From Octopus vulgaris (lineage: Eukaryota), in contig OX597831.1 in the NCBI GenBank assembly GCA_951406725.2, positions 77,128,001 to 77,192,000 on the forward strand: a stretch of DNA of 64,000 nt. Reading direction: 5' to 3'. This document shows, piece after piece, positions 41,481 through 42,441 of this stretch (position 1 is the first letter of the stretch; every line of letters begins with the position of its first letter). The notes beneath the pieces were generated by a model, which did not search any database, was not told the DNA's origin, and saw only the letters and a list, made by a program, of their open reading frames with translations. The translations under genes were made by a program, and so were the position numbers.

Positions 41481-41496
41481 GAATCTATATATATAC

Positions 41497-41531
<35 letters not shown>

Positions 41532-41720
41532 CATATGTATATACGTTTATATATTTGTTGTGCAAGATTTTTTATGTGAAGTCGTGTGTTGAAACAGATA
41601 TTGTTATATTTCGGAATGGTCATTTTGCCAGTTTAGCCAATAAAAACACACGCATTATATATTTGGTGTTATTTTGCTTCAGAGTTATTTATTTTTTGCA
41701 TTAATCTTAATTTTATTTCA

Positions 41721-41763
41721 GCCAGAGTTCTTTCGTCACACTCCTGTGACCGCATCAGTGGCC
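41721..41763 (-). ncRNA. Minimal type I hammerhead motif (A9C variant)
   Basis: GGCCA-CUGAUGC-G-GUCACA(GGAG)UGUGAC-GAAA-GAACUC/UGGCU. Confidence 0.62.
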
Positions 41764-42081
41764 CTTTGCTTTCTTCTTTCTTATTTGTGTCTCTCCTTAC
41801 TAACCGTCAGCCATTTTGTATTTCTATTGTATGTCTTCATTTGCGCATGCTTATATCTCTATGTGCCTCTATGTTTATTTATTGATTTGACTAACTGTAA
41901 CCTTATATATATGTATGTATATTATTATATATTATTTTGTATATACGTATATATATATATATATATATAGGTGCATGTGTATATATACTTCTATGTATGT
42001 GTATATTATATATTATGTATATGTACTCATTCTTGTATGGGTCTACCTTCTTTGATATTCATATTTAGATTGTACTTTATA

Positions 42082-42208
42082 ATCTCTGAAGAGGCCTTGG
42101 GATATATTTGTAAGTGTCTCATTTATAACCACATATTAACTTATCACACCTGGCTAATATGAGCATAATGAGATACTCATATCTACATGGCTGAAACAGC
42201 TGTAAGAT
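42082..42208 (+). ncRNA. Type I hammerhead ribozyme with intact core and ~100-nt extended stem II
   Basis: AUCU-CUGAAGA-GGCC...GGCU-GAAACAGCUGUA/AGAU; palindromic ACAGCUGU stem III; predicted cut after 42204. Confidence 0.8.
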
Positions 42209-42401
42209 ATAGTTTATATTTATATTTATTTATACATATTGTACTTATTGTATCATATTACTCATTGATGTGCACTGTTTTGTTCTGTACTATTATGTTT
42301 GACCTTGATGTTCATATGTAGTTGGTTAATAAGTTATGTGAATGGGTATTATCCGGTAGTTGATTATTGATTAAAGTGTATTTCTCCATTTTCTTATTTT
42401 G

Positions 42402-42441
<40 letters not shown>

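Follow-up and report, generated by a model that had tools for sequence, protein, structure and literature searches.

For PLEs, descriptions exist in print of inverted arms, of tails, of (TA)n targeting and of hammerheads on opposite strands, as far as the available portions of the sources go (PMC8557442, PMC4209133, PMC3846280). Dual minimal hammerheads lying 100-700 bp apart on opposite strands were described by Cervera and de la Pena 2014 (PMC4209133, available in part). For the inverted arms of rotifer elements, the accessible text of Arkhipova et al. 2013 favors self-priming and gives no cross-mobilisation between PLE families (PMC3846280). According to the passages available of Frangieh et al. 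2024, the purified Poseidon PLE protein, predicted to form a dimer, nicks and extends both strands; the tail is defined there by two RT start sites, and hammerhead cleavage is not needed for insertion in vitro (PMC11167929). Elements of the Hydra clade are characterized by a CxCX5C linker, by CxxC and CxH around the E/N residues and by the lack of CCHH, and an octopus family of this clade, Hydra-1_Obim, is already listed in the part of Craig et al. 2021 at hand (PMC8557442). Retrozymes are defined by tandem units and have been proposed to be PLE derivatives (bioRxiv 10.64898/2026.07.22.740005, available in part). The octopus repeat annotation lists active Penelope families and, in its accessible sections, leaves ribozymes unmentioned (PMC13282606).

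The segment considered here belongs to a 64-kb window, the term by which the whole stretch of DNA analysed is designated below. Judging from its sequence, this segment is composed of the 3' ends of two different PLE families, A and B, joined head-to-head between two (TA)n tracts (Table 1). It is mostly ordinary transposon debris and not a viroid-like two-sided RNA. The opposite strands of its two hammerheads are a by-product of the head-to-head geometry, since PLEs often insert as two such arms. As a ribozyme finding the segment is therefore ordinary, opposite-strand hammerhead pairs being a companion of PLE inverted insertions.

Table 1. Features of the head-to-head PLE segment (window coordinates)
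Feature	Positions	Strand	Remarks
Left (TA)n tract; likely arm A target; SINE-like repeat alongside	41486..41543		
Arm A: 3' end of a probable Nematis-type PLE (family A), truncated at its 5' side, tailed terminus	41544..41881	minus	95-97% to other copies
Optional ~53-nt tail of family A	41544..41597	minus	tail-less copies end at position of 41598
Motif A: minimal type I hammerhead, family A	41720..41763	minus	A9C, one more nucleotide ahead of G10.1, loop III not palindromic
Head-to-head junction, 2-nt TA overlap common to both families	41880..41881		unique in genome
Arm B: 3' end of a Hydra-type PLE (family B), truncated at its 5' side, tail-less terminus	41880..42404	plus	91-98% to other copies
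Motif B: type I hammerhead, family B	42082..42208	plus	long loop II, palindromic stem III
Right (TA)n tract; likely arm B target	42405..42437		

A type I hammerhead descriptor matched the window exactly twice, once per strand, and gave 0 matches in 40/40 dinucleotide shuffles of it. An earlier note on this DNA had announced two hammerheads on opposite strands; the sequence and the descriptor confirm both at their claimed places, with a separation of 318 nt for a claimed divergence of ~320 nt. In motif A, stem I is formed by 41759-41763 and 41720-41724 (minus strand) with C3 at 41758, stem II is the perfect 6-bp helix that had been reported (41735-41750), position 9 is a C, and cleavage is predicted after 41725 (minus strand). 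In motif B, stem I is formed by 42082-42085 and 42205-42208 (plus strand) with C3 at 42086, loop II spans ~100 nt, a palindromic stem III is accompanied by a G10.1-U11.1 wobble, and the predicted cut falls after 42204 (plus strand). The segment was rightly described as ORF-free and (TA)n-bounded: four ATG frames of 41-48 aa, all of low complexity, were found and none is coding, (TA)n adjoins at both ends, and no tandem unit was found within it. An Rfam search of the segment produced no match at the gathering score and, at E<=10, TA-repeat noise only with no hammerhead family. MFE folding recovered neither hammerhead, and neither motif folded better than shuffles (z -0.87 to -1.83).

The boundaries of the two arms were obtained from their genomic copies. 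Copies of the left half depart in sequence after the base equal to 41881. Those of the right half start further 5' and span the whole AT-rich 41900-42030 stretch, which the earlier note had taken for an insertion spacer; the copies show it to be part of element B, namely its own 3' UTR, and neither spacer nor target. A nested insertion of B into A or of A into B was rejected, as no remainder of either element is found beyond the outer (TA)n tracts. In the 2.8-Gb genome, motif A has 3,092 exact copies and motif B 164, and the junction 24-mer occurs once. Linkage of the two halves was judged from this junction count and from locus samples. Among the 94 other B-motif loci sampled, covering 100 matches listed of 164, none carries a head-to-head A arm at the spacing of the window; some A sequence is present in 3 of the 94, never head-to-head, and a short-motif scan added L203 to the loci with A sequence near B. 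The B subfamily of the window has 31 motif matches, of which 30 loci were taken in, and an A arm on the 5' side of B is absent from the other 29 of these 30. The proposal of a single ambisense element is therefore largely refuted, by the criterion that the note itself had set: the halves belong to independent families, the junction is single-copy and no linkage is seen in the sampled loci. Its counterpart, two small ribozyme elements inserted back to back, holds as regards two joined elements; what is joined, instead of small ribozyme elements, is a pair of truncated ends from PLEs coding for RT and GIY-YIG. The suggested connection with the hammerheads of PLE pseudo-LTRs is borne out.

Long copies of family A run into a GIY-YIG/RT ORF, open for up to 1271 aa, whose longest frame displays DKSG, YVDD and GIY-YIG motifs and stops 487 nt before the hammerhead. 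Pfam returned GIY-YIG for family A with E=0.002, below the curated cut-off, and no match for the long ORFs. The protein has 267 homologues, some of them named RT-domain proteins, the closest one found being 98% identical with the source label Octopus vulgaris. The features of EN+ PLEs are found in family A, that is an RT plus a GIY-YIG at the C-terminal end in a single ORF upstream of the arm, together with 5' truncation, inverted copies, an optional tail and a microsatellite target. Its linker reads CX4CxxC, within the Nematis CX2-5CxxC, with CCHH and a short spacing to GIY. Family A shares with Nematis the C-terminal GIY-YIG with CCHH and the short GIY spacing, by eye against Fig. S2 of the partly available PMC8557442, and Neptune is disfavored by linker length alone, also judged by eye. 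Family A is thus likely a Nematis-type PLE. An assignment of A to Neptune and of B to Nematis was rejected after comparison with the published clade motifs, as given in the accessible part of the same paper (PMC8557442).

In long copies of family B, a GIY-YIG ORF lies 2.1-3.1 kb upstream of the arm, across an AT-rich UTR. The linker of this ORF (L070, L281, L282) is CxCX5C; CxxC and CxH are placed around its E/N residues, and CCHH is absent. The family also displays (TA)n insertion and a canonical hammerhead near the 3' end; in A as in B the hammerhead lies near the 3' end on the ORF strand. The ORF copies of B itself are truncated or broken, and RWK-like and DKT motifs were not seen there; a sister family has intact ORFs of 955-960 aa (L278/L279) with RWR and DKT. 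The proteins of A and of the sister of B have in common only a 62-aa endonuclease patch (34%). Long asparagine-rich stretches occur in ORFs of both families (L092 3517-7332; L070 1-1431), and such stretches are described for rotifer Penelope elements in the available text of PMC3846280. Elsewhere in the window, a Hydra-like GIY-YIG fragment with 32% identity to the B-sister protein was observed at 45759-46115 (+), a PLE remnant located 3 kb away. Open frames of 198-264 aa were observed at 14142-15564 (-), 2679-3290 (-) and 6544-7335 (-), which resemble fragments of LINE RT and of a Tc1-type transposase.

The two ribozymes differ in predicted activity. In hammerheads, A9 forms a pair with G12 that is important for catalysis. 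Position 9 of motif A is a C in 120/120 arms, so that A9C is a trait of the family and not decay at the window locus; a sister family of A, at L106, keeps A9. Loop III (AGAACU) is non-palindromic in 117/120 arms, with a self-duplex of +1.4 kcal/mol. Stem I is mismatched across the family, the neat 5-bp stem I of the window resulting from private changes, and a young subfamily (~49/120 arms; L092-L101 and others) has, besides A9C, a U instead of a C at the predicted cleavage nucleotide. From hammerhead core chemistry, motif A is predicted to be weakly active. A literature search for 'hammerhead' and 'A9C' found no paper, and the passages available of PMC3088659 and PMC544870 hold no A9C activity data. 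Motif B has the core CUGANGA...GAAA...UH, stems I and II and the palindromic helix III all present, with a self-duplex of -11.1 kcal/mol; pair 10.1-11.1 is G-U in 75 of the listed distinct copies and G-C in 18. It is predicted to work as a dimer. With one hammerhead per strand and cleavage sites facing outward, no unit-length RNA can be released. The two ribozymes probably have no joint function here, because each would require another member of its own family on the same transcript and because motif A is predicted to be weak. Family A, with more than 3,000 copies, young near-identical members, a fixed A9C and a broken dimer helix, offers a natural test of whether PLEs need cleavage. Type I hammerheads with a palindromic helix III were encountered in at least six further repeat families of this genome (L184, L217, L027, L118, L062, L078, L271-L277), and these would likely be missed by Rfam-type searches. 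Also noticed was a TA-inserting family, very young (97-99%), whose direct repeats are separated by ~6.2 kb and which carries a hammerhead-like motif (L340, L341 and related matches).

The organization of inverted insertions was established on same-family pairs. Among the 100 A motifs listed, neighbouring pairs within 5 kb diverge in 22 cases, converge in 0 and point in the same direction in 2. An inverted partner of the same family accompanies 54/116 distinct B arms and 29/64 A arms. The 3' end of either family falls at one of two fixed sites, tailed and tail-less, the tail measuring ~53 nt in A and ~170-180 nt in B. Association of one tailed with one tail-less arm was observed in 20/20 typed A-A pairs and 34/34 typed B-B pairs; 7 more pairs have one untyped end, 1 B locus was unaligned and 6 A loci were left out because they are the partner arms of loci already counted. 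The window follows this rule with a tailed arm A and a tail-less arm B. An exception occurs in a third family, C, where both arms of an inverted pair are tail-less (L283 3020-3225). The odd tail of L104 was examined as a cross-family case and rejected, being private with 1 copy. Same-family arms were also compared for subfamily, with 0 discordant of 30 A and 30 B comparisons, one row (L224) of which compared different structures. Since inverted arms of the same family match in subfamily, they do not normally stem from a mixed RNA pool. The A-A pair of L069 (6449-7882) carries different-subfamily markers; it comes closest to the discordance threshold while still below it, and a B-relative fragment lies across the TA run. 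A strict tail rule (54/54 typed pairs) together with cross-family joins makes the origin of the arms, by self-priming or by two-strand priming, testable by census.

How arms of two families came to be joined can be approached through comparable loci. We consider it somewhat probable that one family inserted beside the other and that the DNA between them was then lost, i.e. two sequential insertions followed by a deletion. Each arm would result from target-primed reverse transcription at nicked (TA)n, priming would begin at one of the two fixed 3' sites of the family, and the unfinished 5' end of the later arm would be joined to the earlier arm via the 2-nt overlap. Sequential joining is demonstrated in this genome. 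The left-facing partner is far older than the B arm at L300 (16/110 vs 11/338, p=7.5e-5) and at L185 (34/419 vs 3/340, p=1.5e-6). L158 and L183 each carry, directly against B and without intervening TA, a complete inverted insertion that belongs to another family; L158 had been a candidate for a second cross-family single insertion and was rejected as such, the abutting structure being a complete, older C-C inverted insertion. L203 shows an A tail inserted in the junction of a B-B pair, and same-direction cross-family joins exist as well (L207 and L265, by eye). Because partners were identified visually against an incomplete library, the numbers of such joins are minimum values. B arms without an inverted partner of their own family amount to 62/116, and many of these run, by eye, straight into SINE, LINE or unclassified DNA; the 5' end of B is commonly attached to an adjacent repeat in this way, with no TA in between. 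The partners found at L310, L186 and L151 have no match among the sampled loci. From copy numbers and (TA)n density, a few tenths of a chance A-B join would be expected per genome, as a rough estimate. Against this reading, no remnant of lost inter-arm DNA was seen. For the left part of the segment, the contigs of 4 public runs contained only pieces of the repeat families, and among the matches listed none bridges the junction and no empty allele appears.

A single event involving two PLE ribonucleoproteins is a tentative and rather unlikely explanation: both strands of one (TA)n tract would be nicked, A would prime the tailed arm on one strand and B the tail-less one on the other, each using its own RNA, and the two would be joined through a 2-nt microhomology. 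Single-event joining across families is only compatible with the data. The ages of the two window arms agree with it, private changes amounting to 8/335 in A and 5/375 in B (p=0.40), as does locus L295 (1003-1725; G000:C4:93765695-93766430), where a tailed arm of family D, a sister of A, and a tail-less B arm lie head-to-head within (TA)n bounds and are age-matched (D 4/115 vs B 8/349, p=0.50). The tailed plus tail-less geometry, the outer (TA)n tracts and the 2-nt overlap are as this event would leave them. A third age-matched join with B is found at L179, with an unclassified partner. The L069 arms, of different A subfamilies below the flag threshold, point the same way, and so does the Poseidon protein with its activity on both strands, its two start sites and its predicted dimer, as far as described in the available part of PMC11167929. 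Against this, only 2 cases are typed, an outcome that chance would give ~1 time in 4, sequential joining is seen in at least 4 comparable joins, and same-family arms are concordant in subfamily. A heterodimer is moreover doubtful for proteins sharing just the 62-aa patch, and the available text on rotifer PLE families speaks against cross-mobilisation (PMC3846280). Should the two-protein event be true, the window and L295 would prove, from genomic sequence, that PLE insertions acquire their inverted arm as a second cDNA with priming of its own and not as a self-primed fold-back.

It is improbable that two complete neighbouring inverted insertions, one A-A to the left and one B-B to the right, later lost the DNA between them so that their outer arms fused. 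Inverted structures are frequent enough, given the partner counts above for B and A arms, and different PLE insertions do share one TA tract at L173 and L069; the scheme nevertheless requires two full structures side by side and a deletion whose ends fall within the two outer arms, and no inner-arm remnant lies within 36-48 kb of the window. Very improbable indeed is a single non-autonomous ambisense element, retrozyme- or viroid-like, both strands of which would self-cleave and circularise: the opposite-strand hammerheads and the ORF-free, (TA)n-bounded segment would suit it, against which stand a single-copy junction, halves drawn from two coding PLE families, no tandem unit, outward cuts that yield no unit-length RNA, and a motif A with A9C and a non-palindromic loop III whose self-duplex is far less stable than that of B.

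Sequential insertion followed by deletion thus being the preferred reading, the segment can be set against the described systems. Non-LTR retrozymes and ambisense viroid-like RNAs resemble it in being non-coding sequences with type I hammerheads; the window differs in having neither a tandem repeat nor a second hammerhead on the same strand, and its joined unit is single-copy. With the minimal hammerheads of metazoan PLEs, as described in the available part of PMC4209133, the segment shares type I topology, the extra nucleotide between 9 and 10.1 and a little or palindromic helix III. Family A departs from them by C9 (120/120) and a non-palindromic loop III (117/120), family B by G10.1-U11.1 in most copies and a ~100-nt loop II; the intact core and palindromic helix III of B match the dimer design of the published motifs (PMC4209133). 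Family B is like the Hydra clade in its C-terminal GIY-YIG, its (TA)n target and its sense-strand hammerhead near the 3' end. Its 3' UTR of 2-3 kb contrasts with described elements that are generally <3 kb in all, and the hammerhead motif listed for Hydra-1_oBim is unlike that of family B, in the text accessible (PMC8557442). A literature search, whose coverage lay outside subscription journals, did not turn up any published case in which PLE arms joined head-to-head belong to different clades. The inverted PLE insertions of Craig et al. 2021 (PMC8557442) and Arkhipova et al. 2013 (PMC3846280), so far as these are available, have the same truncated arms joined 5'-5', outward 3' ends, a tail at one end and (TA)n. 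Their tails measure 30-40 nt, compared with ~53 and ~170-180 nt here, and the window differs further from the published insertions in that its arms come from families of different clades (PMC8557442, PMC3846280). It is this combination that is unusual, namely arms of different clades and similar age that obey the rule of one tailed and one tail-less end.
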